From Bacteroidota bacterium (GTDB taxonomy: Bacteria; Bacteroidota; Bacteroidia; AKYH767-A; 2013-40CM-41-45): 64,000 nt of DNA. The stretch spans positions 512,308-576,307 of the forward strand of contig JADJFC010000002.1 of NCBI GenBank assembly GCA_016708785.1. The letters are read 5' to 3'. The position numbers and the translations under genes were made by a program. Below, piece by piece: positions 8,701-38,378 of this stretch (positions are counted from its first letter, which is position 1; the number at the start of each line of letters is the position of its first letter). The notes beneath the pieces were generated by a model. It did no database searches, was not told where the DNA came from, and was given only the letters and a program-made list of their open reading frames with translations.

Positions 8701-8744
8701 ATTTTTGACATGAAAGATTAATTATATGTCTACCTTTACCCGGC

Positions 8745-17992: not shown

Positions 17993-17997
17993 TAATT

Positions 17998-18945: not shown

Positions 18946-18955
18946 CATCATTCCC

Positions 18956-20257
18956 GTGAAATATTTTTCTACTAAAAATAAAATTGTTGCATATAGTCTT
19001 GAAGAGGCTGTGTTAATGAGTTTACCTCCTGACAATGGTTTGTTCATGCCGGAGAAGATCCCTCAGCTTCGTCCTGAATTCATCGCTAATCTCAAGAATG
19101 AGAATGTTGCATCAATTGGTTATGAAATTAGCAAGACATTACTTGGCGATGATATTCCTCATGATGTCTTGAAAAAGATCTGCAACGAAGCATTCAGTTT
19201 TCCTGTTAACGTTGTGAATGTCCATAACAACACCTATGTATGTGAATTGTTTCACGGACCAACTCTTGCATTTAAAGATTTTGGTGCGCGGTTTATGTCG
19301 CGTGTTATGTCGTATCTGAATCGCAAGCATACTACGCCTTTAACCATTCTTGTCGCTACATCAGGTGATACCGGTGGAGCAGTAGCTGATGGATTTCATA
19401 ATGTAGAAGGTATCGAAGTATACATCCTTTATCCGTCAGGTGGCGTAAGTGAATTGCAGGAAAAACAATTGACTACCTATGGAAATAACATCCATGCTAT
19501 TGAAGTAAAAGGAACGTTTGATGATTGCCAGCATTTAGTTAAGCAAGCATTTCTTGATCCGAAGTTGAATGATGTCTACAGACTTGCTTCTGCAAATAGT
19601 ATCAATATCGCCCGATTGATTCCCCAGACAGTTTATTATTTCGAAGCATTCAGAAAATTGGCTTCGAAAGAAAATGTTGTCTTCGTAGTGCCAAGCGGAA
19701 ATTTTGGAAATCTTACTGCAGGATTGATCGCTCGTAAAATGGGTTTACCGGTTGAACATTTTGTCGCGGCAACAAATATCAACAATGTTGTTCCTGAATA
19801 TTTAAGTAAAGGTGAATATACACCACGTCCAAGTCAGGCTACAATTTCAAATGCAATGGATGTCGGTAATCCGAGTAACTTTCCACGTATGATAGAACTG
19901 TTTGGCAACAGCTGGACAGACATGAAAAGTTCTATCAACGGATATAGTTTTTCTGATGATGAAACAAAAGAGATCATGAAAGATGTCTATGAAAAATTCG
20001 GTTACATTCTTGATCCTCATGGAGCAGTTGCTTATCTTGGTTGGTTAGCATATCAAATAGAAAATCCTGATAGCATCGGAGTAATTTTAGAGACAGCTCA
20101 CCCTGCAAAATTCGGTGATAGTGTAGAGAAGGCTCTTGGTCGCAAGATCGACATCCCTGAAGCTTTGGAATGCTTGAGAAACAAAAAGAAAGTAGCTGAT
20201 TTTATACAAGCTGATTATGAAGAGTTTAAGGCCTTTTTGTTAGCTAAAAAACGCTAA
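18956..20257 (+). CDS. thrC: Threonine synthase
   Basis: PLP-lysine region FHGPTLAFKDFGARFM; 433 aa; follows thrB. Confidence 0.9.
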   Translation: MKYFSTKNKIVAYSLEEAVLMSLPPDNGLFMPEKIPQLRPEFIANLKNENVASIGYEISKTLLGDDIPHDVLKKICNEAFSFPVNVVNVHNNTYVCELFHGPTLAFKDFGARFMSRVMSYLNRKHTTPLTILVATSGDTGGAVADGFHNVEGIEVYILYPSGGVSELQEKQLTTYGNNIHAIEVKGTFDDCQHLVKQAFLDPKLNDVYRLASANSINIARLIPQTVYYFEAFRKLASKENVVFVVPSGNFGNLTAGLIARKMGLPVEHFVAATNINNVVPEYLSKGEYTPRPSQATISNAMDVGNPSNFPRMIELFGNSWTDMKSSINGYSFSDDETKEIMKDVYEKFGYILDPHGAVAYLGWLAYQIENPDSIGVILETAHPAKFGDSVEKALGRKIDIPEALECLRNKKKVADFIQADYEEFKAFLLAKKR

Positions 20258-20301
20258 TACCATTTCTGTTTAAATCGAAAAATGGTGTAAATTGCCCCTG
20301 T

Positions 20302-21249
20302 ATGGGAGAAAATATACCTTCGAATAGAAATGAGTCTGTTGTTTGCGTTGGCGCATCATTAGTTGATCTGACATTCAGATGTGATGCAACGCCTGTTTTA
20401 AATACTTCCAATCCCGCGACAATGCATCGCAGTCCGGGTGGCGTTGTGAGAAATATTGCGCATCATTTATCACTCCTCAATATTCCTGTTGAACTCATAA
20501 CTGTTCTCGGCGATGATCCCGATGGGCATTGGTTATCTAAGCAGTGTACGGACATTGGTATTTCCATGAAAGGTACTGTCTGGCTCGATAAACCAACAGG
20601 AACGTTTGCTTCGATTGCAACGCCTGCAGGCGATCTTCACATCGGTGCAGTAAGTTCGGAAACGGACGTAATGTTGAACACCGATTTTTTGCAAAGTCGT
20701 TCGGAGATAATTTTGAATGCTTCTGTAGTTGTTGCAGATTGTAATTTGTCAGTGAATGCTTTAAAATGGCTGATCAAATTCTGCAATGAGAACGATGTAC
20801 CATTGATTATAGAAACTGTTTCTGTGCCAAAAGCATCACGATTAAGAGATGCTTTACCAGGAAAACTATTGCTAGTAAAACCAAATCGTGAAGAGCTTGC
20901 CGTATTTGAGCATGATGCTCACGTTACACCTGAAGAAAAAATTGCTCACCTGCACATGCTTGGATTCAAAAATGTATGGCTGAGTCGTGGTGCTGATGGA
21001 TCTTTGTTTTCAGATGGAAATACTATTTCATCTATTCCTGCTCCTCGTGTTCATGTGAAAGATGTGAATGGTGCCGGTGATGCATTACTGGCAGGATGGA
21101 TCTGGGCTTGGCTTCAGGATAAATCGGTGAAAGACTGTATTATGTACGGACAGTCTGCAGCATCCTGTTTACTTGAAGTTTTCGGTGCGATCAGAAATGA
21201 TCTTTCACCTGCATTGTTAGAAGAAAAACTTTCATTACAACAAAAATGA
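20302..21249 (+). CDS. psuK: PfkB-family carbohydrate kinase, probably pseudouridine kinase. Its stop overlaps the psuG start.
   Basis: Ribokinase-like fold signatures (GGVVRNIAHHLSLLN, NGAGDALLAGW) and a 4-nt overlap with the pseudouridine-5'-phosphate glycosidase gene. Confidence 0.6.
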   Translation: MGENIPSNRNESVVCVGASLVDLTFRCDATPVLNTSNPATMHRSPGGVVRNIAHHLSLLNIPVELITVLGDDPDGHWLSKQCTDIGISMKGTVWLDKPTGTFASIATPAGDLHIGAVSSETDVMLNTDFLQSRSEIILNASVVVADCNLSVNALKWLIKFCNENDVPLIIETVSVPKASRLRDALPGKLLLVKPNREELAVFEHDAHVTPEEKIAHLHMLGFKNVWLSRGADGSLFSDGNTISSIPAPRVHVKDVNGAGDALLAGWIWAWLQDKSVKDCIMYGQSAASCLLEVFGAIRNDLSPALLEEKLSLQQK

Positions 21250-22151
21250 GTTTCCCTCTCCATTTCTCAGCAGAAGTAAAAGCAGCAATTGAAAATAAAA
21301 AACCAATTGTCGCACTTGAGTCTACGATCATTTCTCATGGGATGCCTTATCCGAAGAATGTTGCCACTGCACGCGAAGTAGAAAAGATCGTTCGTGCCAA
21401 TGGTGCAATACCTGCAACAATTGCAATTCTCAATGGAAACATTCACGTCGGTCTCGATGATGATCAAATGGAATTATTGGGCAATTCAAAAGGCGTATGG
21501 AAAGTTAGTTTGCGTGATTTACCATATGTCGTTTCACAAAAATTAAATGGCGCAACAACAGTAGCAGCCACCATGCGAATAGCATCCTTGGCCGGAATAA
21601 AAATATTTGTCACCGGTGGAATAGGAGGAGTGCATCGCGGAGCAGAAACAACAATGGACATTTCTGCTGACCTCACAGAAATGGCTCAGACAAATGTTGC
21701 AGTAGTTTCCGCCGGTGTAAAATCAATTCTCGATATTGGACTCACCTTAGAATATTTAGAAACACTCGGCGTGCCGGTTGTTACATTCGGTAGTCCGGAT
21801 TTCCCAAGTTTCTATTCACGCAAAAGCGGTTTCGCGACACCGTTACAATTAAATACTCCCAAAGACATCGCTGCACTTTTAGAAGCAAAATGGGAAATGG
21901 GATTAAATGGATCGGTGATGATTGCAAATCCAATTCCAGCCGATAAAGAATATCCTTTTGAAAAAATGGAAGGATTTATTCAATCTGCCTTGAAGGCTGC
22001 CGATGATAAAAACATAACCGGTAAGGAAACAACGCCATTCATTTTGAAATTTATTGCAGATGCTACAGGTGGAGAAAGTTTGGAGTCGAATATTGCATTG
22101 GTGTTTAATAATGCGGTGTTGGGTGCGAGGATTGCTGTCGCACTAAACTAA
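21246..22151 (+). CDS. psuG: Pseudouridine-5'-phosphate glycosidase
   Basis: 301 aa; ESTIISHGMPYPKNVATAREVEKIVRANGAIPATIAILNG and GGIGGVHRGAE motifs characteristic of PsuG (IndA family). Confidence 0.85.
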   Translation: MSFPLHFSAEVKAAIENKKPIVALESTIISHGMPYPKNVATAREVEKIVRANGAIPATIAILNGNIHVGLDDDQMELLGNSKGVWKVSLRDLPYVVSQKLNGATTVAATMRIASLAGIKIFVTGGIGGVHRGAETTMDISADLTEMAQTNVAVVSAGVKSILDIGLTLEYLETLGVPVVTFGSPDFPSFYSRKSGFATPLQLNTPKDIAALLEAKWEMGLNGSVMIANPIPADKEYPFEKMEGFIQSALKAADDKNITGKETTPFILKFIADATGGESLESNIALVFNNAVLGARIAVALN

Positions 22152-22295
22152 AATTCCGATAATCGTAAATGTCACTTTCTTTGTGTTTTTCTCCCGCTGA
22201 TCTCGCTGATTTTGCGCAGATAAAAGGAAGATTCTTAAATTCAAAGTTGGTAGTGTTTTTCAACTCTTATTTTATTGTTTGCAGCGTTGCCAGCA

Positions 22296-22361
22296 GTCGA
22301 AGATTTACCTGAAGCTAGGCGGAATTTTAAAATTCCGCCTAGCTTCAGGTAAATCTTCGAC
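22296..22361. repeat. Perfect 66-bp palindrome (33-bp arms, no spacer) between psuG and ssrA
   Basis: GTCGAAGATTTACCTGAAGCTAGGCGGAATTTT | AAAATTCCGCCTAGCTTCAGGTAAATCTTCGAC, read directly; no mismatches. Confidence 0.9.
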
Positions 22362-22425
22362 AAGTAATATGCAAACCTACAAACCAATAAAATTCCTTAC
22401 CTTTGACGCACTAACTAATTAACCT

Positions 22426-22790
22426 GGGGCTGCCCGGATTTGACAGCGGGTGAAATTGGTATGTAAGCATGTCGAGGGTCGGGAGTAAGCCTCGTAAAAC
22501 ACGGTTCCCAAATGCCTAAATGGCAACAACAATTACGCGTTAGCCGCTTAATCAGAAGATTAATCCGCTTTCTACCTTTTGAGAACCTGTTCACCCGTTT
22601 TCATGATTAAGGTATCGTATGGTGAATGCTCTCTGATGATGTTTCCTGCATCAGGTCTAAGATTCAAGGAAAATACGTTGGATGATAGCGCGTGTTTAGC
22701 AGTCATTCCGCCGACAATCAATAAACACTAAACATGTAGAAAGCGTATTGATTGCTTGTCTGGACGAGGGTTCAACTCCCTCCAGCTCCA
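22426..22790 (+). ncRNA. ssrA: tmRNA (transfer-messenger RNA)
   Basis: 5' GGGGCTG...GATTTGACAGCGGG tRNA-like start. Internal tag ORF GGC AAC AAC AAT TAC GCG TTA GCC GCT TAA = (A)GNNNYALAA* at 22522-22551. 3' T-arm and acceptor GGACGAGGGTTCAACTCCCTCCAGCTCCA pairs with the 5' end; the CCA is not encoded. Confidence 0.85.
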
Positions 22791-22825
22791 CAAAACCCCG
22801 CAGGGGATTTGAACTTTAATCTTAA

Positions 22826-22878
22826 ACCTAAACTTAAACTTCCTTTCAAAGAAGTGTTGGTTTAGGTTTTTTTGTTTA
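22826..22878 (+). terminator. Hairpin plus T-run downstream of ssrA
   Basis: AAACCTAAAC ... GTTTAGGTTT followed by T7. Confidence 0.45.
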
Positions 22879-22910
22879 TGTTAAAGTTTAAGCAACGTCT
22901 ACGCAAATCA

Positions 22911-25900
22911 TTATTCACCATTCGTTACAACAACAAGCTTAGCCTGAAGTCCCGTTTCCTCTCTTACAAAATAAACCCCTTTGGCAAGTTGAGAAACATT
23001 CAACTCTTTAGTCGTTTGTTCTGCTAATACTTCTTTGCCGGTGATGTCATAAACGGTCACTCGATAAAAATCATTCATGTAGACTTTTCCATCGACCGAT
23101 GGATTAGGATAAAGCATTAGTTGCCCATTCTGACTTGAAAAATCCAATTCAAACATTGCTGTCAACGTTAGATCACTTGTCATGTTAACGGATATCGTTG
23201 AACTAGTCGAACTGATTTCTTCCCATCTCACAAATTTGTAGCCGGGTTTTGCAATTGCAGTCAGTGTCACGGGTACGTTTTCAAAGTATGTTCCTGTCCA
23301 TGGATAAACATGATCACTCACTCCGGGCAGAGTAGAGGAAATGAAAAGTGAATTAACAATAATATTTCCGTGCGACATGTCGTCAACGTTGGCATGTAAC
23401 AAATGTGTTCCACTCAAATTAAATTGAGATTTTACATGTGCTCGTTGAAAATCTACTCTGACTCTGGCAAAAATTCTTAACTCTTCAATGTTGTCATACC
23501 ATTTCTGCATATTGTCAGGAGTTCTCCAACGTCCGATGTGGCGCGGCATTTCAGGTTCTATTGCCGCTGCGATCTCATCAATTCTATCCAACATTCTTTG
23601 CGTGTCAAAAGAACTGTTCATCAGATCAGCATACCTTGAAATAAATTGTTGTTTGAATTCCGAATTGATAAGTAATCTTTTGAAAATTGAATCGCTCATT
23701 TCAGTGATTATGAAATTGAGATTGTTGAAATCAGGGTCGTAAAATCCACCATCAAAATCACTCGCCATAAATCTCCATCGACCATCTTGGCCTTCCTTGA
23801 CATATGATCCCGGATGACCATTGCGCATTTTCCAATACGATTGATTGTGATTTATATTTCTTTTGTTTGTGAATGCTGTTGCAGACCAGTAGTCAATAAG
23901 ATTGCTGATGTCTAAGTGATCAGTAACGTAATTGTAATTTGATTGAATGGTTAGATCATTTTGACCTATAAAATTTTTTAGTGCTATGAAACTCGCTTCT
24001 TCGCCCGCTTGACCTGTGATAAGTTGATATTGACCGTCAAGATTATCTTCCATCATAATAAGACTATCACGATTGATTCCATAATTTTTTTGAATTCCCC
24101 AAGCGTCATTTAATTCCCTGATGTTGTGAATTCCCCAGTATTCTCCATTCACAAATGCAACAGTTGGAGCATATGCCTGGTATTTTAAATCCAAATGATC
24201 AAATAACGATTGAACAAGGCCGTCACGACACATTGTATTTCCCGGAATTCCCCATTCATTTCCATTGTTACGAAGAATAATTCGTTTGAATTCATCCAGT
24301 GTTTCTTGTGTACCCGGCTTTTTTAGACTTTTAAAGAAATTGTAATTAAAGTTGTTTTCTAAATCATATTCACTTCTTGCATAAACTGTCAATGCTTTTT
24401 GCCCGAGATTTCTTATCCATTCACCTCTTGTTCTTATCCCGATCTCTTGTGAAAGTACTTGTTGTCCGTTAGGTTTAAAGAATTCAAAATTCGCAGGTCG
24501 CTCTGATTTTAAACCCGACAATTCATAATTTCCGGTGAATGCATTTCCATTGAACGTTGCTCCGGGAATATAAATTCCTGTATAGAAATTGAAAAGATTC
24601 TCAGGATCAGTAACAAGCGAAATAACAGGGATTTTAAATTTATCTTCAATATCTGAATCAATAAAGTAGGTCGATGTTACAATGTTTCCTAATCCTTGTC
24701 CCGGTGTGTAAACTCTCGAACGCAAAACTCCGGCCTTGATCAATGTTGTATTCGGAGTCCTGTAGAAATTATGCATTGGACCATTCAATGTTATTGGCGC
24801 TGATCGTATGTATGAATAAGGTTGATGTGGAAAATCAGATGCAGTAATATTCAATTCCGGCTGGCCCACAGGAATTGAATCTTCTTCAAAATGTATCGGT
24901 GACGAATAGACGAAAGAACGATCTGTCGGATCAGAACCATCAAGCGTATAATAGATTACACTTCCAGGAGGTGCAGTGATGCTGACGTCGATGGGAGTTT
25001 GATAAAAACCGGAAAGACGTGAATATAATGGCAATTGTGTTGTATCGCCATTCGGTAAAATTGAAAAAGACAATAAGTTTCTTGACTGATGTGTTGTATC
25101 ATTGTGATCAATTACTTTAATGAATGAACGTGTTGAGTAAATATTTGGAACTGTCCAGGTGAAAGATTCATCTGTTGCCAAAACATTCGATGCCAACTGT
25201 TGCCAGTTTACTCCGCCATCATCGGAAAATTGAAGATCTACAGATTGAATTGAACTTCCTGCTGACCAATAAATATTAATCGTTGAATCTCCTTTGTATT
25301 TCATAAAAGCTTGCGGATGGCCTAAGATCAGATCCGATGTCGGTACAGGAATTCCTCCTACAGGGAAAATTGCTCCGAGATCTTCTCCGTTAATTCCTTT
25401 TCCGCGTAATGGAGAGATAGGACTGAGCTGAAAATTATCTGAACTTGCATCAACAAAAAATGGATCCAGTGAATAATTATTAGCTACCGTATCTACAATA
25501 TTCTCTTGTAAATTAGAGTAGGAGAGTTCTAATGTTGCATCAGTTGACAATGAAAATGATCCATTTTGATTTTCCCAGAAAATATTGTTGTACGCAACTG
25601 CATGTCCACCTCCAAGTCCTGTATTCTTTTCATAGACTTCAATTCCATATCCGCAGTCATAGATTGTGTTATTATAAATAGTTGCAATGGAACTGTCTTT
25701 TACTGCAATGCCTGATCCTGCACGGTAAATTAAAGTTCCTGTTACCACAACATCAAGCGCCCCTTCACCAATAGAAATTCCATTGTCGCTAAAGTTGTAG
25801 ATCTTGCAATTTTCTACACGTGCTCGTGAACCTGGGGGCATAAAGTCAACTTTTCCAAAATCGATTCCATCGATATTGAATCCCTTACCATTTCGTACAG

Positions 25901-26513
25901 TAGTGTTTCGTATAATTGTTCCGGCAGGAACATTATCGAAGTCAATGCCATCGGCAGTTGTGAATTCGAACAGGCAATTTTCAACCAATGCAACTGTCCT
26001 CACAATATTGATTTCATAATAGTCGCTGACCTGCGTACTATTTACATAAATTGAATTCGCATCTATTACGAAGAGGATTGGATTATCACCCTGATTATAA
26101 TCGTGAAGTTTGCAATATTGAATATTTCCAATTCCACCATTCGATACTTTGATCTGACCACCTTCTACATCGGTGTATGACATTTCAATAACTGATCCCG
26201 GTTGTGATGCATGAAAATTGTACCAATAAGTTCCAGGTACTGCAGCTGAAATCGAAACAGGTGATGCGTCACTGCCTTGAATTCTGATCACCGAATTTGA
26301 ATCAGCGGTAACTGAAATTCCGGGATTCAATTTGACCACCGATCCTGCCTGAATCGTCAACGTTTTGCCGGTTAAAACCTGAACATTCCTGTCCAGCAAA
26401 ACTGTACCTGACCAAGTTGTATCTTGGGTCACTAATAACTTTGGTGTCGCCTTTGAAGTTAGACAAAGACATAATAAAATAGGGAAAATTAACTTAAAAC
26501 AGCACTTTAGCAT
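22911..26513 (-). CDS. Secreted CotH-kinase-like protein with an N-terminal parallel beta-helix region and a T9SS C-terminal sorting domain
   Basis: 1200 aa; signal peptide MLKCCFKLIFPILLCLCLTSKA. CotH-like segments (FISRYADLMNSSFDTQRMLDRIDEIAAAIEPEMPRHIGRW, YWGIHNIRELNDAWGI) parallel those of the 2-8597 gene. C-terminal LMLYPNPSVDGKVYM...GVYFVRE matches a Por secretion tail. Confidence 0.8.
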   Translation of the reverse strand: MLKCCFKLIFPILLCLCLTSKATPKLLVTQDTTWSGTVLLDRNVQVLTGKTLTIQAGSVVKLNPGISVTADSNSVIRIQGSDASPVSISAAVPGTYWYNFHASQPGSVIEMSYTDVEGGQIKVSNGGIGNIQYCKLHDYNQGDNPILFVIDANSIYVNSTQVSDYYEINIVRTVALVENCLFEFTTADGIDFDNVPAGTIIRNTTVRNGKGFNIDGIDFGKVDFMPPGSRARVENCKIYNFSDNGISIGEGALDVVVTGTLIYRAGSGIAVKDSSIATIYNNTIYDCGYGIEVYEKNTGLGGGHAVAYNNIFWENQNGSFSLSTDATLELSYSNLQENIVDTVANNYSLDPFFVDASSDNFQLSPISPLRGKGINGEDLGAIFPVGGIPVPTSDLILGHPQAFMKYKGDSTINIYWSAGSSIQSVDLQFSDDGGVNWQQLASNVLATDESFTWTVPNIYSTRSFIKVIDHNDTTHQSRNLLSFSILPNGDTTQLPLYSRLSGFYQTPIDVSITAPPGSVIYYTLDGSDPTDRSFVYSSPIHFEEDSIPVGQPELNITASDFPHQPYSYIRSAPITLNGPMHNFYRTPNTTLIKAGVLRSRVYTPGQGLGNIVTSTYFIDSDIEDKFKIPVISLVTDPENLFNFYTGIYIPGATFNGNAFTGNYELSGLKSERPANFEFFKPNGQQVLSQEIGIRTRGEWIRNLGQKALTVYARSEYDLENNFNYNFFKSLKKPGTQETLDEFKRIILRNNGNEWGIPGNTMCRDGLVQSLFDHLDLKYQAYAPTVAFVNGEYWGIHNIRELNDAWGIQKNYGINRDSLIMMEDNLDGQYQLITGQAGEEASFIALKNFIGQNDLTIQSNYNYVTDHLDISNLIDYWSATAFTNKRNINHNQSYWKMRNGHPGSYVKEGQDGRWRFMASDFDGGFYDPDFNNLNFIITEMSDSIFKRLLINSEFKQQFISRYADLMNSSFDTQRMLDRIDEIAAAIEPEMPRHIGRWRTPDNMQKWYDNIEELRIFARVRVDFQRAHVKSQFNLSGTHLLHANVDDMSHGNIIVNSLFISSTLPGVSDHVYPWTGTYFENVPVTLTAIAKPGYKFVRWEEISSTSSTISVNMTSDLTLTAMFELDFSSQNGQLMLYPNPSVDGKVYMNDFYRVTVYDITGKEVLAEQTTKELNVSQLAKGVYFVREETGLQAKLVVVTNGE

Positions 26514-26666
26514 CTTAAACAGGGGTCGGTTAGGGAGACCAATTTAAGATGTTATCCCATACGAGTCAAGTTTAAGTGGTGATGTTGCTAAGGTTAAGGT
26601 TGTGTTACGTATACTAATTATTCGAAATTAGCGAAAAACACATATCTTAACCACCTCAATTTTGAA

Positions 26667-29600
26667 TTGATTCATAGAATGAAATTAATACCCCAGTCGC
26701 CTAAAAAAGCACTTAAAGCTTTTCTGAAACAAAAACCATTAAGAAGTGAAATTGACCTTTTTAAGGCTAATCTCATTATTCTTCTCGATAAAATTAATGT
26801 AATCGAAAAACGCCCTAAAGACGAAAGCGAAGAGCATCTGAAAAATGACCTTCGGGACTTTTTGCGAGATACGTATTACAAAGAATCAAATGCTATCAAT
26901 ACGAAAGACAAAAAGGATCTTGTCATCCATTTAGGAAAAACTACAGATAGTGAAGTGGGAGTGATCATAGAAGCAAAACGTCCGACGAATATCGGTGAAA
27001 TGATTTCTGCTGATAATCCCAATAAAAAAGCCCTGCACGAACTCATTTTGTATTATCTCGATGAAAGAAATAGTGCGGGAAACAATCAGCTGAAACAGTT
27101 GGTAATGACAAATGTCAACGAATGGTATATTATTGATGCCAATTTCTTCGACAAACATATTTACCGAAATGCTCAGATCAAAAATTGTATGAAACGAAAG
27201 TCAATGACAAAAAAGACAATCCTTTCTTTTATGGAAGAAATTGCAAAAATTATCTCCAAACTTGATGTTGAAATCCCTTGCGTTTATTTTGATATTCGCG
27301 AATACGATACTATTTTAAGAAATAATAAGAAAGAAGATGATCGCCAGCTAAGTGCTTTACTGAAAATTCTTTCGCCACAGCATTTGCTCAAAATTGCTAC
27401 GCCAAATGACAGTAATACACTAGATGAAAAATTCTATAAGGAATTACTTCACATCATTGGACTGGAAGAAGCAAAAGAAGGCGGTAAAAATATTATTCGT
27501 CGCAAAAAAGATAATCGTAATGCTGCATCATTAATTGAATCGACAATTGAAGCACTCCTGACCGACGATCCATTTCATCGGATTCCTGATCTTTCCATCT
27601 ATGGCGATACGAAAGAAGAAAGAGCATTCAATGTTTCGCTTGAATTGTGCATTACCTGGATCAATAGAATTCTTTTCCTCAAATTGCTCGAAGGACAATT
27701 GATCACATACCATCAAGGCAATAAGGATTATCGATTTTTAAATACAGAAACCATTCACGACTTTGATGAGCTCTTCAAATTGTTCCATAAAGTTTTGGCT
27801 GTAAATGTTGGCGATAGAAGTGAGGCTGTTAAGTCGAAATACAGTCGCGTTCCTTATCTGAATAGTTCGTTGTTTGAAATAAGTGAACTGGAAGATCAGA
27901 CCATTAAAATTAATGCGGTTGACAACAGCGGACAATTGGAACTTATTAGTACAACAATTTTAAAGGCTGTAAAAAGTAAATCCAATAAACTTCAGCCGCT
28001 CGATTATTTGTTTCAATTTCTCGATGCATACGATTTCGCAAGTGAAGGAACTGAAGATGTTCAGGAAGATAATAAAACCATTATAAATGCTTCTGTACTT
28101 GGAAAAGTATTCGAAAAGATAAACGGATATAAAGACGGATCCATTTTTACGCCTGCATTTATAACAATGTATATGTGTAAACAGTCAATTCGTTTGGCTG
28201 TTGTGGAGAAATTCAATGAAACTCTTTCGAAGAAAGATGAAAAACTGTTCGATAAATTTGATGATGTAAAGAACTACACTTCCCGCTTATTCAAAACGCA
28301 GGAGATTCTAAAGGCAAATGAAATTATTAATTCATTGCGTATTTGTGATCCCGCTGTTGGTTCCGGACACTTTTTAGTTTCTTCTTTGAATGAGATCATC
28401 AGTATAAAAGCAGAACTTGGAATTCTTGCAGATGAATCAGGAAACAGTATCAGCGGTTATGAGATCGAAATTGTTAATGATGAATTGATCATTACTGATC
28501 CGAAAAGTAGCATTCTCGAATATAAATTGCAGAATGGAAAACCGTTGAGCAAAGAAATTCAACGACTTCAAAAAGCGCTCTTCCATGAAAAGCAAACGAT
28601 CATTGAAAGTTGTTTGTTTGGAGTTGACATCAATCCTAATTCTGTGAAGATCTGTCGTCTTCGTTTATGGATTGAACTGTTGAAGAATGCATACTATAGA
28701 GAAGAAAGCGGTTTCACAGAACTTGAAACTCTTCCCAATATCGACATCAATATAAAATGCGGAAATAGTTTGCTCAGTCGTTTTGCTTTGGATTCTGACC
28801 TGAGCAAAGCTTTAAAGAGCATTAAGTACGACATCAAAGCCTATCGTGGTTTTGTAAGCGATTACAAGAACGAAAAGAGCCGCGATGTAAAACGCGGATT
28901 ACAAAGATCATCGACAGCATCAAAAGCGATTTCAGAACAGAGATCAGTCGCGACGATCCGAAGCAAATTAAATTGAGTAAACTCGGTGGCGAATTATTTA
29001 CCTTACTCAACCAAAGCCAGATCTTCGAACTTACTCCCAAAGAAAAGAAAGCTCAGAAAGACAAAAAGGAAAAGCTCGAAGCCGAAATAAAAAAACTCAC
29101 TGCTGAAGTCGAAGAAATAAAAAGTAATGCCATTTATAAGAATGCCTTTGAATGGCGGTTTGAATTTCCGGAGGTGTTGGGGAATGATGGGGAGTTTGTG
29201 GGGTTTGATTTGGTGATAGGGAATCCGCCGTATATACAATTGCAAAGTATGGGTAATGATGCTGAAGTACTTTCTCATGCGTTGTATAAAACATTTGCTA
29301 GAACTGGAGACATTTATTCACTTTTCTATGAAAGGGGAAATAGTATCCTGAAAAATGATGGTTATCTGTCTTTTATTACGTCTAATAAATGGATGAGAGC
29401 GGATTACGGGAAAATACAAGAAAGTTCATTTGTGAATTCACTAATCCTTTGTTATAAAGACTTTGGAATGGTTTTGGTTTTTGAAAATGCGACAGTTTTG
29501 AGTAATATTTTAATGTTTAAATCTAAACCAACAAAAGCTCTTAGCAGTACGAATTCCAGATTCATTTGATTTAAAATCGTCGTTGGAAGATTACTATGCT

Positions 29601-30196
29601 GAAAATTTGGTTCCTGTTGTAATTAGTGAAAATGCATGGCTCATACAAGATAAGGAAGTTCAAAAATTAAGCAAAGGGGCTTTGGCGTGGGACGATTTAT
29701 GGACAAACGGTTTGATGATGCATTTGTGATAGATGGAGCAAAACGAAGTGAGCTAATTATGAAGGATTCAAAGAGTGCAGAAATTATCAAACCTTTATTG
29801 AGGGGAAGAGACATCCAAAAGTACCATGCTGATTATAATGACTTATGGTTACTCTTTATACCATGGCATTTTCCTCTACATAAAGATAAATCAATTCAAG
29901 GCGCATCTACAATAGCTGAAACTGAATTTCAAAGGCAGTATCCTGCAATCTATGATCACCTTCTTGGTTTTAAAGAAAAACTTAGTGCCAGAAATAAAGC
30001 TGAAACTGGTATCAGATACGAGTGGTATTGCCTACAGCGTTTTGGATCTAACTATTTTGAAGATTTTGAAAAGGAGAAAATCATTTACCCGAATATGACG
30101 AAATTTTTACCGTTTGTCTTTGATAAAGGGTCGTTTTATACTAACCAAAATGTTTTATTATTACAGGTGAACACTGTGGCAGCTTTCAAATTCTAA
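26667..30196 (+). CDS. Type IIG/IIL restriction-modification fusion enzyme (Eco57I/MmeI-like), about 1176 aa if contiguous. Currently split into three ORFs (26667-28976, 28973-29569, 29687-30196) by at least three frame breaks.
   Basis: N-terminal PD-(D/E)xK nuclease signature (DLVIHLGK...VIIEAKRP). N6-adenine methyltransferase motif I DPAVGSGHFLVSSL and motif IV VIGNPPYIQLQSM. C-terminal Eco57I/TaqI-like specificity region (KPLLRGRDIQKYH). The 29570-29686 gap translates in a third frame as IPDSFDLKSSLEDYYAENLVPVVISENAWLIQDKEVQKLSKGALAWDDLW, bridging the pieces. Confidence 0.75.
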
Positions 30197-30645
30197 GTTT
30201 AGTAGTTTCGCTACGTTAAAAAGTGTCAGACACGGAAGATTTTTGAATTAGTGGAAACTAAAGATGAAACGAGAAGAAGATACGAAAAGAGTTCTTTATT
30301 GAACAGAAATTGCTTCATTTCGAGTTATCAGAAGAGAATTGAATAAATAATGCAGAATATTAAAATGGTAAATTATTGTAATTTTCGAACTGATGAGATT
30401 GTAAACGTAATTCTTTTATTTGGCGCATTTTTTGCTCTTTTTAAACTCATTATTTCAATGCTTTTGAACTGGAGGCTGGTTTTGCCCCCCCGGGATAAAA
30501 CACTTTTCGTAATTCAGGCTCGGAAATTATCTTTAAAACAAAATTTAAAAAGACTGGAATTGAAAAGGCGGTGAGATACGAAAGTTGTTCCCTGTTATTA
30601 TAAAGGTTTGTCGTTAGTATAAAACGCCGTTTTAAATGACTTTAT

Positions 30646-31268
30646 TTGTGGCAAAAGATGGTCATAGCATATATTAGAGTAAGTACTGAAAAGCAGAATA
30701 CGGAAAATCAAAAATTTGAAATTGAGAAATACTGCAAAGTGAATGGAATTGTTGTCGAAAAATGGGTCGAAGAAAAAATTAGTGGCTTAAAAAAAATGAA
30801 AGAAAGAATGTTAGGTGGTTTGTTGAGTAAGTTAAAGAAGATGATTTATTAATTATTTCTGAATTATCAAGATTGGGTAGAAACTTGATGGGAATAATGA
30901 AAATTCTTCATGATTGTATGGAAAATGATATTCGTGTAGTTGCGATTAAAGAAGGTTATGTGCTTGGAAATAATATTAATTCAAAGGTATTAGCATTTGC
31001 ATTTGGACTTTCAGCAGAAATTGAAAGAAATTTAATATCACAAAGAACAAAGGAAGCATTAGCAAGAAGAAAAGAAGAGGGTGTTATTTTAGGAAGACCC
31101 AAAGGAAGTAAAACTAAAATACATAAATTAAAGGACAGAGAAGAAATAATTATTATGTTGGTTGGGAAAGGAAAATCTTTTACTTATATTGCTAAAAGAA
31201 TGTCAGTGCATAGGACAACAATATCCAATTATTTGAAGGAAAGAAAATTAAGCCCCCGAAGAAATTAA
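30646..31268 (+). CDS. Small serine recombinase (resolvase/invertase family) with a C-terminal HTH. One frame break at the AAA run 30834-30836 (ORF pieces 30646-30852 and 30873-31268).
   Basis: Catalytic-Ser motif IAYIRVSTEKQ. The downstream piece continues DDLLIISELSRLGRNLMGIMKIL...RTKEALARRKEEGVILGRPKG and an HTH (SFTYIAKRMSVHRTTISNYL). One extra A restores the frame (..LSKLKEDDLLII..). Confidence 0.8.
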
Positions 31269-31563
31269 AATCGTTGAAGGGAAATAAGAATTTAATCCAT
31301 GGCATTCATCAAGTATGATTTTGTTTATTAATTGACAAAGAAAGGAATGCGGTAGCAAAGGTAGAGGATAAGATTGTGTAGTATTTTTGTTTTCCGTTAA
31401 CTGGTGAACAGTCTTAATTTTGTGGACAGTTGTAGACTAAAACCAACTGTAATTTTTCAAATTGATTATTAATTCTATTTAAAGAGGGGAATTTCAACAT
31501 TTTAGGATTAATGGACACACATATTTTCACTTTTGATTATCTTTGAACTTTACAAGATAAATC

Positions 31564-32028
31564 ATGAACCTAAAGGATAAATTAAAGAAAGAGATTCAAT
31601 CCAACGAAAATTCAAAAGTCGATTGGGAAAAGCGGAAATCTGAGTGGATAAATTCTGTGAATGAACTAAATGAAATGATTATTGAGTGGTTTAGTGATTA
31701 CAAAGCAGAAGGCCTTTTGGATTTTAAATTTTCTGAAAAAGAGAATACTGAAGAGTATATTGGTAATTACAAAGTAAATATTCTGCATTTGTGTTTTACA
31801 ACAGGCAAGGAAATTGTAATTGAACCTATTGGTACATTGATAATTGGTGCATGGGCGAGATTTGATGTTTATGCCAGGGGATATAATTCCGGCAAATATT
31901 TTATTTTAAGATATAAAGAGGAATCAGGAGAATTTACATGGCATATTTCTAATCCACAGAATAGGAGAGATGTGCAGGTTTTATCTAAAGAAGTTTTAGA
32001 ATCTATATTTGAAAAATGGTTGAGTTAA
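31564..32028 (+). CDS. Hypothetical 154-aa protein with no recognisable motifs. Its stop overlaps the start of the downstream HEPN gene by 13 nt.
   Basis: Clean ORF in the low-GC island; translational coupling with the next gene. Confidence 0.5.
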   Translation: MNLKDKLKKEIQSNENSKVDWEKRKSEWINSVNELNEMIIEWFSDYKAEGLLDFKFSEKENTEEYIGNYKVNILHLCFTTGKEIVIEPIGTLIIGAWARFDVYARGYNSGKYFILRYKEESGEFTWHISNPQNRRDVQVLSKEVLESIFEKWLS

Positions 32029-32564
32029 ACTCGGATAGACTAACTGAGTCTTATCTAAATTTTATAGCAATTAAGGAATCACTAGCATACGTTCAAAAGA
32101 ATCATTCAGAAGAAATGATGATGCATTTCTGAATAAATTGGATTTCCGTATGTTAATCAGTCAATTAAAGACCGCAAAGCATTCGTGAATTCAAAAATGG
32201 AGGAAATGGTTAATTCTATGGATGAATTAATTGTTCTTGGTTTGGTGTCTGACTTCGAAAAAATCGTTTTCGATAGACTTGAAATGCCAGTGGTGAAATA
32301 TCGAAAATTGTAAAAGAAAAGTATAAAGGTGTGCCTTTCAATAAATTTTCCCTTGATTTTGTTAAGACTGCAAAAGAAATAGATAAATTATCTGTTATTA
32401 AATCTATTATTTCTCCTAAACTTCCTGCAGAGCTAGTGGAAAAATTTGCTGAAGTCGTGGAATTCCGGAACAGACTTGCGCACGGAAAAAGATTTGGGAA
32501 ACAATCAATGTTGACTTATGATGAAATTGCGCAGACTTTAGATGATGTGTTGAATTTTATTTAA
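32016..32564 (+). CDS. HEPN-superfamily protein (about 182 aa reconstructed) carrying an Rx4H motif. Three single-A deletions at AAA runs (32113-15, 32176-78, 32296-98) split it; only 32331-32564 is called in the ORF track.
   Basis: C-terminal FRNRLAHG (R-x4-H). Reconstructed as MVELNSDRLTESYLNFIAIKESLAYVQKNHSEE-NDDAFLNKLDFRMLISQLKTAK-AFVNSKMEEMVNSMDELIVLGLVSDFEKIVFDRLEMPVVK-ISKIVKEKYKGVPFNKFSLDFVK...; each junction is fixed by adding one A. Confidence 0.55.
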
Positions 32565-32745
32565 ACTAAAGGATTCGGATGAAGCAATTTAATTTCGCTA
32601 TGGCATCATAGATTTTATCAGAAAATTGCATTTATGTGTGATTTTTTTTATAGAAGATGAAGATTTTAAAGTAATCGCTAAAAGCAAAAGATTTCCAACC
32701 TTTAAATAGAAACTAGAAAAAGATAATATTGTTTTTAAACTTCAA

Positions 32746-33066
32746 ATGGTTGGATCAGATAACATATTAGGTTTGATTTTGTTGATATACTTTAAAGAGG
32801 AAAAATTTATCAAAATTAACTTAATTCAATCATCGAAAGAAAACGTTGGTAATAAGAAATTATATGACAGGATAGCCGGATGTCTCATTTCTTATGCTTG
32901 CAGGCTTTCGTTTGTTGCAGGATATGGAGGTTGCGTTGCTCTGCAACCTAAAACAGTAATTGCTAAACATTATATTGATAAGTATCAATTTAAAATAGGC
33001 GGTAAGAATTTGTACATAGAATTAGTTGATGCAGAAAATTTAATTGAAGAGTATCTAAATAACTGA
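32746..33066 (+). CDS. Hypothetical 106-aa protein, possibly a RelE/HigB-fold toxin and upstream partner of the HTH gene
   Basis: Size, and a C-terminal ..QPKTVIAKHYIDKYQFKIGGKNLYIEL.. segment that weakly recalls RelE/HigB. Separated by 4 bp from the next gene. An in-frame TAG lies 45 nt upstream with open frame before it. Confidence 0.35.
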   Translation: MVGSDNILGLILLIYFKEEKFIKINLIQSSKENVGNKKLYDRIAGCLISYACRLSFVAGYGGCVALQPKTVIAKHYIDKYQFKIGGKNLYIELVDAENLIEEYLNN

Positions 33067-33070
33067 GAAA

Positions 33071-33577
33071 ATGAAAACTAGAAAGAAACAAATAAAAGTT
33101 AAAGTTAAGGGTACTGAAATTTTGCCTAGCCAATTATCTGCGAAGCAACAAAAGGAAGCTGATAAAGAGTTTTCAAATTTTCGCTTGAACCAGTTAGGTA
33201 AGATGACTGAAAAGGAAAAGGTTTATTCTCGAATTTTGCAAATAAAGTACACGATGGAAGAATATTTTAAGAGCGATACTTATGATGCTAAATATTCATT
33301 TAGTCACTTTTTAAGAGAATATATACATTCTATTAACAAAAAAGATAATGAATTCTCTAAAGAAATAAGTTTACATTTTACGCAGCTAAGTCGAATTCTA
33401 AATAATAAAGAAGAGCCCGGCAAAAAGATATTTGTTAGGTTAGAATTGCATTCTAATAATTGGATCCCTGCTTTATATTGGTATCGTGTTTTAGAAAAGA
33501 AAAGAGAATTGGAAATTATTAATGATAAAAGTTTGAGGTCGGCCGAAAAGAAGAGAGTAAAATCTGTAATTGCATAA
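33071..33577 (+). CDS. XRE-family HTH protein (HigA-like antitoxin-type) with an N-terminal extension
   Basis: FSKEISLHFTQLSRILNNKEEPGKKIFVRLELHSNNWIPALYWYRV resembles the HigA/XRE HTH plus the following 'efW..lq' segment. Confidence 0.5.
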   Translation: MKTRKKQIKVKVKGTEILPSQLSAKQQKEADKEFSNFRLNQLGKMTEKEKVYSRILQIKYTMEEYFKSDTYDAKYSFSHFLREYIHSINKKDNEFSKEISLHFTQLSRILNNKEEPGKKIFVRLELHSNNWIPALYWYRVLEKKRELEIINDKSLRSAEKKRVKSVIA

Positions 33578-33686
33578 GAAATGTAGCATGGAAACAACAT
33601 CCTTAAGGTGTAGCCTAGCTGATAAAAGTTGGGGAAGTAGCCTGCGGACTACATCCCCAACTTTTATAGTTATTCGTGATTATTTT

Positions 33687-36600
33687 TCACTGTTTCACAA
33701 CCTTCCAAGTCTTCCTCCAATTCTCCCCTTTAATATTCACCAGATAAATCCCGGCTGCCAAATCTGAAACTCTAACTTGTTTAATTAAAATTCCTGCCTT
33801 CACGAAAATATCCTGAACCAGAATTTGTCCTAGTGCATCCATAACCTGAACAGAGATTTTTTCTGTGCCTGCGAAATCAAAAGCAATGTTGAGCAACTCA
33901 CTTGAGATCGGATTCGGATAGATACGAATTTGCTCTGTAGCAGAAATGTCGTTCACTCCAACCATAAATTGATAATACGATACTGAATGAATACAACCTG
34001 AGATTTGATCAGTGATCACTACCGTATAAAATCCGGTGTGATCCGGTGTAATAGTATTGGTAGTTCCACCAAATGGAACTCCATTGTAGGTCCACGAATA
34101 AAGATATTGTAGTCCTGTTGGTGTTGCAATCAGATCCGGCGCTGAATAATTGATCTCCGGATTTATATCAGTCAAGTTCACGGGTATCGAAGTTGAATTG
34201 GTGCAACCTGAAGCATCTGTAATTGTTACACTATAAGTTCCTGCTGTATCAACAGAGATGCATGATTGAGTTGTACTGTCATTCCACAAATAAGATGTGT
34301 AACCGGAAGTCGCACAAAGAATTCCAACTTCTCCCTGACATAGTTCCGTCTGACCTGCTATTAAAACAGGAGGTAAGCTATTGAAGACAACAACATGCGT
34401 GTCATTTCCAACACAACCTACTGCATCATGAATTGTAACAGAATAATTTCCGTTTGAATTCACGCTTATACATTCTGTGGTTTCTCCTGTATTCCATGTG
34501 TAGTCAACATAGCCGGATGGAACACAAAGTTCCAAAGGTACTCCCGGACATGGTGCATGTGTTCCTGAGATCACCGTTGTTATACTTGAGGAGAAAGTTA
34601 CAGGTAGAGAGCTACTTGCTGTACAACCATTGCCATCGGTAATTGTTACCGTATATGTTCCTGAAGAATTTACATTGATACATCTGGTCGTATTTCCTGT
34701 TGACCATTGATATAATGCACTTCCTGTTGGTGCACATAATTGTCCAACTGCACCCAGACATAATGAATTCGGTCCTGAGATAGTGGCATTCAATTGTGAG
34801 AAAATAGTAAGACCTTTTGATCCTGTCGCTGTACATCCATTTGCATTGGTAACAGTAACTGAATAAATTCCACTGGTGTTTGCGTTGATACAACGGGTCG
34901 TTTGTCCGTTTGACCAAAGATATTGATAGTTAGTTCCAGATGGTGCGCACAACTGCGGATTGCTATTGTAACATGCAGTTGAAGGTCCTGTGATCGCTGC
35001 AGAGAATGCAGGATATGCTGTAAATACTTTTGATGCACTTCCTGTACAACCTGATCCGTCAGTCACGGTTACTGTATAGGTGCCCGAAGTTGTTGGGCTA
35101 ATACATTGTGCTGTTGATCCGTTTGACCATAAAGTTGTTCCTGCCGCTGAAGCACAAAGTTGTGCAGTTTGTCCGGGACAAACACCGGCAGGACCGGTAA
35201 TAGTTAGGTTGAGACTTGCACCAACAGTCAACGTGTGACTTGCACTTCCTGTGCAACCATTTGCATCGGTTAGCTGAACGATATAAGTTCCATCAATAGA
35301 TTTACTGATGCATTGTGTTGTTTCTCCACTTGACCAGAGGTAAGTAGTAAATCCGGAAGGAGCACATAATTGGGCTACTGATCCAAAGCAAACATTTGTC
35401 GGACCGGTTATAACTGCCGGCGTTATTGCATAACTTGAAAGTACATGAGAAGCTGTGCTTTTACATCCATTTCCTCCTGTTACTGTTACTACATAATTTC
35501 CTGAATCAACAACATTGATACAAGATATAGTAGCTCCATTCGACCATAAAAATGTTCCACCAGAAGTAACAGCACATAATTGTACGGTTGTTCCGGGACA
35601 AGCAATTGATGACCCGGTGATAGAAGCAGTAGGATTTGGTAGAATAGTTATAGAGTGAGACGAACTTGAGGTACATCCATTGGCATCTGTTCCTGTTACA
35701 ATGTATGAGCCTGTGGTCAATGGCGCTAAGCATTGAGTAGTTTCACCCGACGACCAGGCATATGATGAATAACCACCTGCTGCACATAACTGCGGAAATG
35801 AATTTGCGCAACCTGATGCAGGTCCTGTGACTGACATTGCAGCTGCAGTATTTACTGTTACTGCTTTCGAATTTGTTGCCGTACATCCGCCGGCATCCGA
35901 AACACTGACAGTATATGTTCCGGTTGAAGCAGGAGAGATGCATTGAGTAGTCGCACCATTGGACCATAAGTATGTACTAAAGCCGGCATCACCACAAATC
36001 TGTGTGCCACTTCCGGAACACATTGTTGCCGGACCGGTTATAGCAACTGAAATGCTACTTCCAAATGTAACAGTATGTGAATCGGACGATGTACATCCAT
36101 TGGCATCTGTAATCGTAACTGTATATGAATTTGTGCTCGCTGAATTGATGCATTGAGTAGTTGCGCCGGTTGACCATAGGTATGAAGATGAACCTGCATT
36201 ACCACAGATCTGCACTGTATTTCCTGTACATCCTGTTGTTGGTCCTGTTATAAGAGCAGTTGGATTTGTATTAACTGTGATCGTATGACTATCTGTTGCT
36301 GTACATCCGATTGCATCAGAAACTGTAACTGTATATGATCCGCTGGATGCTGGATTAATACATTGTGTTGTTGCTTGTTGACCAAAAATAGGCTGATGCG
36401 CCAACTGTTGCACACAATTGCGGATTGGTTGATGCACAGGCTGTCGTTGGTCCGGTAATAGTTGTAGTAAGATTACAAGGATCAGTTGCACAAATACTGA
36501 ATGCACCAAAATCATCATTGCCAACATCCCACATTCTGATCCATACTGTCGCACCCGGAGTTAATCCGGAAACGATCTGAGCATATGGCATTGATGGTGT

Positions 36601-38205: not shown

Positions 38206-38378
38206 TGGTTTTATTGTGGTTAAACGACGTGGGAGAGTCGTGGAATTATAGGCTACAAAGTTAAAATTGTTAAGCGATAAATGAAAGGTTATTCGAATCA
38301 GTTTCCCCCAAATAAAAAGGCCTTTCCGAAGAAAGGCCCCTGTCATAAACAAACGTTAATTATATGTCTTTTTGAGTC

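Follow-up and report, generated by a model that had tools for sequence, protein, structure and literature searches.

Phage Mu with its G segment and the invertase Gin, phage P1 with C and Cin, and e14 with P and Pin are invertible systems that provide alternative C-terminal parts, and in Type I hsdS systems the recombinases are usually of the tyrosine type. For restriction-modification (RM) genes, Milman, Yelin and Kishony (NAR 2023; PMC9881135) reported that Eco57I-domain/Type II RM genes are over-represented among the predicted targets of programmed inversion, as are Mpi-family invertases among the neighbours of such targets; eleven Type II RM loci of this kind were verified by long reads. 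Furuta et al. (NAR 2010; PMC2853133) described recognition domains that differ between alleles of Type IIG genes. Here, we analyse a stretch of 64,000 nucleotides of a Bacteroidota bacterium (GenBank assembly GCA_016708785.1, contig JADJFC010000002.1, positions 512,308 to 576,307; hereafter the window, numbered from its first letter), which carries a Type IIG RM gene followed by a gene for a small serine recombinase. We consider it likely that positions 26663-33670 are a 7-kb AT-rich accessory islet of defence and addiction modules, set between conserved genes for a CotH protein and an M12B metalloprotease and not linked to the tmRNA gene ssrA, in which an invertase switches the tail of the RM enzyme, two further gene pairs resemble toxin-antitoxin systems and most of the broken reading frames are consensus errors. 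As a whole this is an ordinary defence islet, whose most interesting element is the predicted invertase-driven switch on the Type IIG enzyme.

Results

Borders of the islet and its relation to ssrA

The window was compared with contigs of the same species (about 99% identity), namely L001, from a second metagenome-assembled genome (MAG), L082 (= L168), L167 and L169 to L176. A scan of species-representative genomes with the psuG product added one close relative, L002 (psuG 93% identical in amino acids). The locus of this sister species is collinear with the window over 15994-26607 and 33682-38639 and keeps the order thr-psuG-ssrA-CotH-metzincin-AlgH, with identities of 85% for the thr genes and psuG (window 15994-22138, L002 1-6197), 96% for the tmRNA (22373-22794, L002 6797-7212), 74% for CotH (22951-26607, L002 7416-11074), 77% for the protease (33682-38232, L002 11180-15741) and 85% for AlgH (38310-38639, L002 15876-16204). 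In place of window positions 26608-33681 (7.07 kb), L002 has about 105 bp between the CotH upstream region and the metzincin stop; from this and the alignment of the junctions, the accessory segment therefore measures about 7.0 kb and lies at about 26663-33670, with borders good to a few tens of bases. Since the sister species keeps the CotH and metzincin genes in place, both are conserved flanks. On the left, outside the islet, lies the gene of a 1200-aa CotH-domain cargo protein of the type IX secretion system (T9SS; 22911-26513, minus strand; Pfam CotH, Beta_helix, Por_Secre_tail), the second CotH domain within the window after that at 783-2135, with an intact 1201-aa syntenic orthologue directly after ssrA in L002. 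The right flank is an M12B (reprolysin-type) metalloprotease gene with Ig-like repeats and a T9SS C-terminal domain (33687-38352, minus strand; Pfam), syntenic in L002, where it is one intact ORF of 1543 aa; it is split in the window and yet a single gene.

The islet differs from its surroundings in composition. Its GC content of 0.330 is the lowest of any 7-kb window in the 64 kb, all others lying between 0.351 and 0.416 (mean 0.384), and its GC3 is 0.24-0.30 against 0.30-0.38 elsewhere. This agrees with the initial annotation, which had called 26.6-33.6 kb AT-rich and had asked for such a check of GC and codon composition. Its gene list also largely holds in Pfam, PADLOC and NCBIfam searches, with a CotH/T9SS protein, a Type IIG RM enzyme, a small serine recombinase, a pair of an unknown and a HEPN gene, and a T9SS metzincin. 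Further GC dips as low as the islet occur at 44001-45000 (0.304) and 52001-53000 (0.298).

The initial annotation had placed the island immediately downstream of ssrA, a well-known hot-spot for islands. The tmRNA gene is where it had been put, at 22426-22791 on the plus strand (ARAGORN; Rfam RF00023, 147.5 bits; tag peptide GNNNYALAA). A classical ssrA-targeted island spanning 22.8-33.6 or 22.8-38.3 kb, whose integrase and distal att repeat were since lost, would explain a block that is AT-rich, made of defence genes and found within 4-11 kb of the tmRNA 3' end. Against it, the indel starts 3.8-3.9 kb past this end, beyond the conserved 3.6-kb CotH gene, which has background GC (0.38) and follows ssrA in L002 likewise; 22.9-26.5 kb is not accessory DNA, and the metzincin and AlgH genes are syntenic too. 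The 22-mer at the ssrA 3' end has no second match in the whole window at up to three mismatches, and a short-word blastn search with 140 nt (the last 90 nt of ssrA and 50 nt of downstream flank) gave chance 9-12-mers only. The main ORFs scanned between 22.9 and 38.9 kb contain no integrase domain, and the sole recombinase they encode, an Mpi-type invertase of 203 aa, lies mid-islet and is missing from the other allele described below; the lack of both repeat and integrase had been remarked on from the start. Direct or inverted terminal repeats at the islet ends, sought in the clean sequence of L082, amounted to chance 7-mers. With no start at the tmRNA 3' end, no distal attR repeat and no integrase at the border, an ssrA-targeted island appears highly improbable. 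The closeness of the islet to ssrA is coincidental, and the tmRNA is neighbourhood context, not the attachment site. What stands of the proposed accessory island is an AT-rich, integrase-less block that is smaller than thought and detached from ssrA: about 26608-33681 is missing from L002, while the rest of the 22.9-38.3 kb between ssrA and yqgE is conserved there.

Absence at a conserved site in one relative, deviant composition and a content of defence and addiction genes are what is found here of a genomic (defence) island in the broad sense. In 23 more distant relatives (psuG at most 73% identical) no tmRNA was found near psuG, and the direction of the event, insertion here or deletion in L002, is for this reason read from composition and content. 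An islet that was present in the ancestor of the genus and then lost by deletion from the L002 lineage would be compatible with the finding of one islet-free relative and of no outgroup with ssrA-CotH synteny. However, the deviant composition, the occurrence of each module alone in unrelated genomic contexts and the allelic replacement of the RM gene within the species speak for acquisition, and we regard an ancestral islet as quite unlikely.

The Type IIG gene and a putative invertible segment at its 3' end

The islet begins with a Type IIG gene on the plus strand (26667 to about 30360, the 3' end being approximate), which encodes a nuclease-like DUF7149/DUF7814 region, a gamma-class N6-adenine methyltransferase and a TaqI_C domain (Pfam; PADLOC). 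In Pfam its domains are DUF7149, DUF7814, the Eco57I/MmeI methyltransferase and TaqI_C, and the PADLOC model REase_MTase_IIG (PDLC03612) matches its first 769 aa with 592 bits. The same domains are found in the 1257-aa protein of L082 (Eco57I, 137 bits). In translation, the NPPY motif of the methyltransferase lies at about 29225, and nuclease region, NPPY methyltransferase and recognition domain are joined in one predicted polypeptide, as the definition of a Type IIG enzyme has it. In the window, its coding sequence is broken up into at least three ORFs (26667-28976, 28973-29569 and 29687-30196), the frame breaks having been mapped against L091, a related metagenome locus, and L082; the gene really reaches to about 30360. 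Its recognition domain has relatives of 57-61% identity that are annotated as short stand-alone 'TaqI_C' proteins.

A repeat search located a 14-nt exact inverted repeat at the end of this gene. The left core, CGTTTTATACTAAC, covers the FYTN codons of the RM gene (30132-30145, plus strand) within a 50-61-nt arm at 30124-30184, and the right core, its reverse complement, is at 30613-30626 (minus strand) within an arm at 30574-30634; none of 300 shuffled sequences reached this length. The putative invertible segment between the cores, 30146-30612, holds two convergent alternative C-terminal tails, as judged from translations and from the clean contig L169. Tail A runs on the plus strand to about 30360 and tail B on the minus strand from 30612 down to about 30366. 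In L169, which also holds the end of tail A, tail B is a start-less open segment of 114 codons, FYTNDKTFIITGNNLSYLTAFFNS...NNLTHF*, converging on the RM end. A second inverted repeat in this region (I2, 29964-29996 and 30510-30542) is not nested with the arms of the first and was set aside as due to chance.

Just outside the right repeat lies the gene of a 203-aa serine DNA invertase of the Mpi family (30658-31268, plus strand; Pfam Resolvase and HTH_38). It is split by one missing A at about 30840 into two ORFs (30646-30852 and 30873-31268), which score 80.6 and 186 bits on NCBIfam NF009949. The intact gene of L169 differs from it solely by the base missing at 30840, and its product reaches 299.3 bits on this profile ('master DNA invertase Mpi family'; cut-off 272) over positions 1-199 of 203. 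It carries the YIRVSTEKQ catalytic-serine motif and a C-terminal HTH_38 domain, as expected of a member of the Mpi family. As judged from its sequence, the role of the recombinase is most likely to flip the tail of the RM enzyme, and not to have assembled the islet: the invertase would turn a segment of about 0.5-0.7 kb so that the constant enzyme body is completed by either tail A or tail B (about 115-130 aa), and two enzyme isoforms, presumably differing in target recognition, would arise within a clonal population.

Alternatively, the recombinase might be the remnant of a resolvase or transposase (Tn3-like or IS607-like) that delivered the 2-kb block around its gene or the whole islet, in which case the repeats would reflect coding homology with a dead duplicate and no inversion would take place. 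Weak secondary matches to IS607 transposase and Ccr recombinases point in this direction, and so does the window repeat, whose arms are just 70-78% identical outside the 14-nt core. Compared with the other allele, moreover, this 2-kb block is an insertion or replacement that kept a relic of the old C-terminus. Nevertheless, the top family is the Mpi master invertase, above the curated cut-off, and no transposase or terminal inverted repeats were found around the block. The promoterless second tail is open over 114-129 codons in three independent loci (L084, L091 and L169), and three loci have exact cores at the same codons. Finally, the layout of gene, pseudogene and invertase is found again in other genera, and long reads have validated members of this class (PMC9881135). 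Hence, we hold a delivery remnant to be improbable and keep to the predicted tail switch.

Relative to L169 there are 104 gap positions, all of them bases missing from the window, and 100 of the 104 fall in 30267-30660, where 27% of the bases are missing over 390 bp, all as deletions and with few substitutions. The consensus is badly collapsed in this part, and the next 2 kb show six substitutions and four 1-nt gaps. The collapse within the segment seems most easily explained by merged reads of both orientations, given that a mixture of alleles would have damaged the whole 2-kb allele-specific block. In addition, L169 and L170, which are filed under different samples, both start at window position 30267/30268, inside the segment and some 90-100 nt short of where tail A ends; this shared break could reflect a branch of the assembly graph caused by population heterogeneity to its left. 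Both the collapse and the contig ends are indirect hints of inversion, not proof. A protein search with the RM variant bearing the alternative tail retrieved only the window's own fragment at high identity and so yielded nothing that would attest inversion directly.

Two alleles of the RM gene in one species

The window sequence is matched by L001, L082 and L167 up to position 29235, just past the NPPY codons, and again from 31255 onwards. Between these points, the three contigs have 1172 bp and the window 2019 bp. In L082 all islet genes are intact, and the RM gene is one ORF of 1257 aa that ends in ...LTPEEIKIVEGK; in L167 and L168 it is called as a gene of 1253 aa. The 2019 bp specific to the window allele (29236-31254, plus strand; delimited by where homology to L001, L082 and L167 stops and resumes) comprise a different methyltransferase C-part with its TaqI_C domain, the two alternative tails and the invertase gene. 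Directly behind them, at 31255-31287 and overlapping the invertase stop, a relic of the last 10 codons and the stop of the fixed-allele RM gene (PEEIKIVEGK*, plus strand) is identical to the C-terminus encoded in L082. Because the last codons of the fixed allele survive as a relic, the window allele looks derived by replacement. The window allele is also present in L169 and L170, from 30267 rightwards and with an intact 203-aa recombinase, and L172 starts within the recombinase gene at 30897 (partial copy, 123 aa). On this comparison of sequences, the species holds two RM alleles, one fixed, with a single ORF of 1257 aa, and one bearing the invertase, as in the window; the methyltransferase C-part and TaqI_C region of the fixed allele would have been replaced by the 2-kb block.

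The islet is present without the recombinase in L001, L082/L168 and L167, and the recombinase-less gene order is likewise found in L171 and L175. Therefore, contrary to one suggestion of the initial annotation, the recombinase did not build the islet; it is an Mpi-family invertase that belongs to the predicted switch of the RM gene.

A further idea, which we offer as tentative and rate well below an even chance, is that the 2-kb block of recognition domain, spare inverted tail and Mpi invertase is a portable 'switch cartridge' that converts a fixed Type IIG gene into a phase-variable one by allelic replacement, with crossovers at the NPPY region and in the last codons, both alleles being maintained in one population. 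Inversion could then toggle a trait other than specificity, such as cleavage competence or oligomerisation, since only the last 115-130 or so residues are exchanged, mostly past the TaqI_C core.

Related loci in metagenomes and cultured genomes

Of the metagenome loci with homologues of the RM body, 80 in all, four (L084, L091, L128 and L156) have a convergent spare tail directly after the RM stop. A full Mpi-type invertase gene lies beside the spare tail in L091 and L156; L084 shows its first 27 codons before the contig end, and L128 ends earlier. Exact cores at the same codons as in the window measure 18 nt in L084 and 16 nt in L091, and in these two loci both tails are open over 125-131 codons. 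The locus L156 is a variant, with a 38-nt exact repeat further upstream, so that about 200 aa are swapped, including positions 38-118 of the TaqI_C profile. The same module was found in the complete genomes of Chryseobacterium indologenes (CP050961.1) and Spirosoma linguale (CP001769.1), with inverted repeats of about 300 nt; in both, it is the spare, inverted cassette that is annotated as the stand-alone 'TaqI_C' protein, with an RM gene and a resolvase of about 200 aa next to it. Thus, the predicted architecture of programmed inversion (PMC9881135), that is, a long gene with a short inverted partial copy, repeats that overlap both and an adjacent recombinase, is seen in the window and in L169, L084, L091, L156, L177 and L178.

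Two side observations concern these loci. The convergent tails overlap by about 95-105 nt on opposite strands at 13774-13879 of L084 and 6519-6612 of L091, and therefore this stretch codes both ways. The RM gene of the C. indologenes locus (L177, 4349-7726) is annotated as a pair of ORFs, of 876 and 241 aa, that directly precede the inverted cassette; a frameshift could account for this, as could an inversion caught in an intermediate state.

Broken reading frames

Against contigs of the L082 and L169 type, single bases are missing from the window at 27180, 28903, 30840, 32095, 32136 and 32282, mostly in A/T runs, and an extra G at 27233 is the only indel against L169 and L082 that is not a missing base. 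Where the sequence is not collapsed, window and L169 share about 99.5% identity (1-nt gaps counted), and the genes of L169 are intact. In general, the broken genes of the window are intact wherever independent contigs of the species cover them, RM positions 29236-30266 being covered by none; an island that is old in the sense of decaying, as had been proposed, draws little support from this. Splits are also seen in large or conserved genes outside the islet, such as an M61 peptidase gene (12257-14013), whole in L001 and broken here where a C run differs at 13334, and the flanking metalloprotease gene, interrupted near 36355-36554. Overlapping ORFs on the same strand occur at 8709-10501 and 46372-52665 as well. 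Taken together, the split large and conserved genes point to indel errors in the window assembly.

It might also be that the genes for the RM enzyme, the invertase and the HEPN and GNAT proteins are true pseudogenes in this strain and that their functions have been lost. The islet has a roughly 20-fold higher density of frame breaks than the remainder of the window, with zero indels against L001 in the housekeeping and CotH coding sequence of 14.9-26.5 kb; the roughly 120-bp deletion by which the GNAT start is lost shows microhomology at its ends and is not a homopolymer artefact; and L001, which is from another MAG, likewise has a split RM gene. Yet with a single exception the indels against L169 and L082 consist of bases that the window lacks, mostly within A/T runs, and L169, so similar outside the collapse, has intact genes. 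The conserved flanking genes for the M61 peptidase and the metzincin are split too, and the loss of 27% of the bases over 390 bp with few substitutions is not a pattern of pseudogene decay. We therefore judge real decay to be unlikely, if less so than an ancestral islet, and on these alignments most of the frame breaks are probably errors of the assembly consensus.

The p154-HEPN and GNAT-HTH pairs

Besides the RM gene with its invertase, the islet contains two more self-contained modules. The first consists of a gene for an uncharacterised 154-aa protein (p154; 31564-32028, plus strand), found as an ORF and through the contexts of its homologues as the constant upstream partner of a HEPN gene, and of this HEPN gene itself (32016-32564, plus strand), which in clean contigs encodes 183 aa, overlaps p154 by 13 nt and carries the RNRLAH (Rx4H) motif. 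In L082 both are intact, with 154 and 183 aa and the 13-nt overlap. The HEPN gene of the window is broken by three 1-nt gaps (32095, 32136 and 32282), so that the N-terminal half is lost and a fragment ORF (32331-32564) is left; it is intact in L169, too. Its Pfam matches, to HEPN_RiboL-PSP and HEPN_MAE_28990, are weak, with 21.4 bits on PF18735 for the window fragment (gathering threshold 28.4) and 17.8 bits on PF18737 for the intact protein of L082 (threshold 26.8). The HEPN183 family is small, with 38 clusters found, and several homologues have a precomputed PF18735 match and are named RiboL-PSP-HEPN by JGI. For p154, whose homologues are moderately numerous with 782 representatives at E<=1e-3, no family was found in Pfam, PADLOC, NCBIfam or PHROG, and its fused relatives show no annotated domain. 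A profile search against PDB sequences aligned it with short stretches of Photorhabdus propeller lectins, none significant alone, which were judged spurious.

Homologues of p154 with 155-161 aa (58-59% identity) overlap a HEPN gene by 12-13 nt in an Arcicella MAG (L162), in the metagenome contig L165 and in the short contigs L163 and L166, and in L164 a homologue of 154 aa (61% identity) lies just upstream of a HEPN gene without overlap. In L162, L164 and L165 the pair stands alone between housekeeping genes. We therefore rejected, as a rule, a role of p154-HEPN as an accessory of the RM gene, although it occurs beside an RM homologue in L106; there (1289-2280), distant homologues of p154 and HEPN (30% and 28% identity) lie immediately upstream of an RM homologue of 61% identity. 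To judge from motif and gene contexts, p154-HEPN is probably an autonomous cassette, predicted to act in toxin-antitoxin or abortive-infection fashion.

The second module had been annotated as a HigBA-like pair. Its upstream gene codes for p156 (32650-33066, plus strand; ORF 32746-33066), which has 156 aa in clean contigs such as L082; in the window, the deletion of about 120 bp at about 32647 removes the start and roughly the first 18 codons. One source calls p156 an N-acetyltransferase. A model built from a 12-sequence alignment (pLDDT 88.9) matched GNATs in Foldseek at probability 1.00, and TacT, AtaT and GmvT, toxins that acetylate tRNA, were among the top matches (TM 0.52-0.6), superposing no better or worse than other GNATs. 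The downstream gene codes for p168 (33071-33577, plus strand), a 168-aa helix-turn-helix (HTH) protein and candidate antitoxin or regulator, which starts 4 nt after p156 in L082 as well. It matches PHROG families for an HTH DNA-binding protein (7.4e-6) and a 'plasmid antitoxin with HTH domain' (0.004), and no Pfam family; for p156 and p168, nothing significant was found among PDB sequences. HigBA requires a toxin of RelE/HigB fold and is ruled out by the GNAT fold of the upstream protein; the toxin-first order and the HTH partner alone resemble it. With a GNAT fold in p156 and an HTH in p168, the model therefore suggests a toxin-antitoxin-like pair with the toxin gene first, which is probably the nature of this module. 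Neither this pair nor p154-HEPN fits a PADLOC model.

Other features near the islet

An AlgH/YqgE gene (38379-38882, minus strand; ORF list and family scans) follows the metalloprotease gene. Between the last islet gene and the metzincin stop, a hairpin with a 19-bp stem and an 8-nt loop (33622-33667; inverted repeat I13, 95% complementary) looks, by its place between convergent genes, like a two-way terminator; the equivalent in L002 is a different hairpin. A perfect hairpin with a 31-bp stem lies at 22296-22361 between psuG and ssrA (RNA fold -62.5 kcal/mol, z = -13.6). It is shared with L001 and could be a terminator or a REP-like or MITE-like element.

Discussion

The islet lacks both a mobility gene and recognisable ends. 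For a plasmid or phage origin, distant blastn gave matches to methyltransferase motifs on plasmids only, none in phages, and no close match. Most simply, the islet would be a mosaic: horizontal transfer and recombination, whether homologous or illegitimate, would have placed it in a permissive intergenic site, where modules were then exchanged.

Several points weigh against the reading proposed here. A single islet-free sister genome was found, and synteny alone fits an insertion here as well as a deletion there. Every conspecific contig was retrieved by means of island proteins. With regard to the switch, the repeat core of the window is just 14 nt long, and shuffled sequences reached 13 nt; the orientation is the same in every contig that covers the segment (the window, L169 and L170); and the tails are about 70% alike over their first 55 or so residues and differ mainly in the last 70 or so, beyond most of the TaqI_C profile, so that a changed DNA specificity is not assured. 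Homopolymer runs do not explain the frameshifts at 29400-29700 or the loss of about 120 bp at about 32647, and these changes may be real. Lastly, p154 has no recognisable fold (single-sequence model, pLDDT 60; no Foldseek match better than E=1).

For the scanning of genomes, these results mean that proximity to ssrA and AT-richness are insufficient to call an ssrA island; one syntenic relative shifted the boundary of the islet by 3.9 kb and removed the proposed mechanism. Invertible segments may show up as locally collapsed consensus in long-read MAGs, and such a collapse may serve as a search signal. The two recurring two-gene cassettes, p154-HEPN and GNAT-HTH, are candidates for toxin-antitoxin or anti-phage modules. 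As to the RM gene, the locus is an environmental example, from an activated-sludge Bacteroidota, of a Type IIG enzyme predicted to be recoded by an Mpi-type invertase. The RM switch belongs to a class described in 2023, to which the coexistence of switchable and fixed alleles within one species, with a visible scar of the replacement, is a modest addition.

Compared with known systems, the islet is like ssrA/tmRNA-integrated islands and prophages in having AT-rich defence genes a few kb from the tmRNA 3' end, whereas here there is no integrase and no duplicated ssrA 3' end, and a conserved 3.6-kb gene intervenes. With HEPN toxin modules, the p154-HEPN pair shares the HEPN Rx4H motif and a small, tightly coupled partner, although p154 is not an MNT nucleotidyltransferase and belongs to no recognisable family. 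Known GNAT toxin systems have an upstream antitoxin of ribbon-helix-helix (RHH) type (RHH/DUF1778). The pair in the islet resembles TacAT, AtaRT and GmvAT in combining the GNAT fold of these toxins with a small DNA-binding partner, which here, however, is an HTH protein encoded downstream.

The RM gene shares with the recognition-domain alleles of Type IIG genes (PMC2853133) that close genomes have the RM body and both flanks in common and diverge in the C-terminal recognition region. In the present species, homology is lost after 29235 and regained at 31255, one allele adds an invertase and a second tail, and the relic of the old C-terminus marks the replacement. With the loci of Milman and co-workers, and with those in CP050961.1 and CP001769.1, it has in common a long Eco57I/TaqI_C RM gene followed by a short, promoterless inverted copy of its 3' part, repeats that overlap both copies, and an adjoining Mpi-family recombinase of about 200 aa. 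It departs from the Milman-type loci in the DUF7149/DUF7814 N-terminal body and in being solitary, without a PLD-SNF2 or DUF1016 partner, and, while some of those loci were confirmed by long reads, the switch of the window is predicted from its sequence layout. In the window allele, L084 and L091, the exact core is 14-18 nt long and the last 115-130 or so residues are swapped, whereas the loci of the cultured genomes have repeats of about 300 nt at the start of the recognition domain.

The layout is also that of Mu Gin, P1 Cin and e14 Pin, with the constant N-terminal part outside the segment, two convergent C-terminal parts inside it and the gene of a small serine invertase just outside one repeat. 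In Mu, P1 and e14, however, the target is a tail-fibre gene and the invertase gene contains a Fis-dependent enhancer, whereas in the window the target is an RM enzyme and the invertase is of the Mpi subfamily. Type I hsdS shufflons and phase-variable Type I RM systems (such as S. pneumoniae SpnD39III and Bacteroides fragilis; PMC7672463, PMC7641763) likewise undergo site-specific inversion between expressed and silent specificity copies. The outcome is a population with several methylation and restriction specificities, and the target is the separate S subunit. Unlike this Type I subunit, the predicted target in the window is a single-chain Type IIG enzyme, which would be recoded at its C-terminus by a serine invertase.

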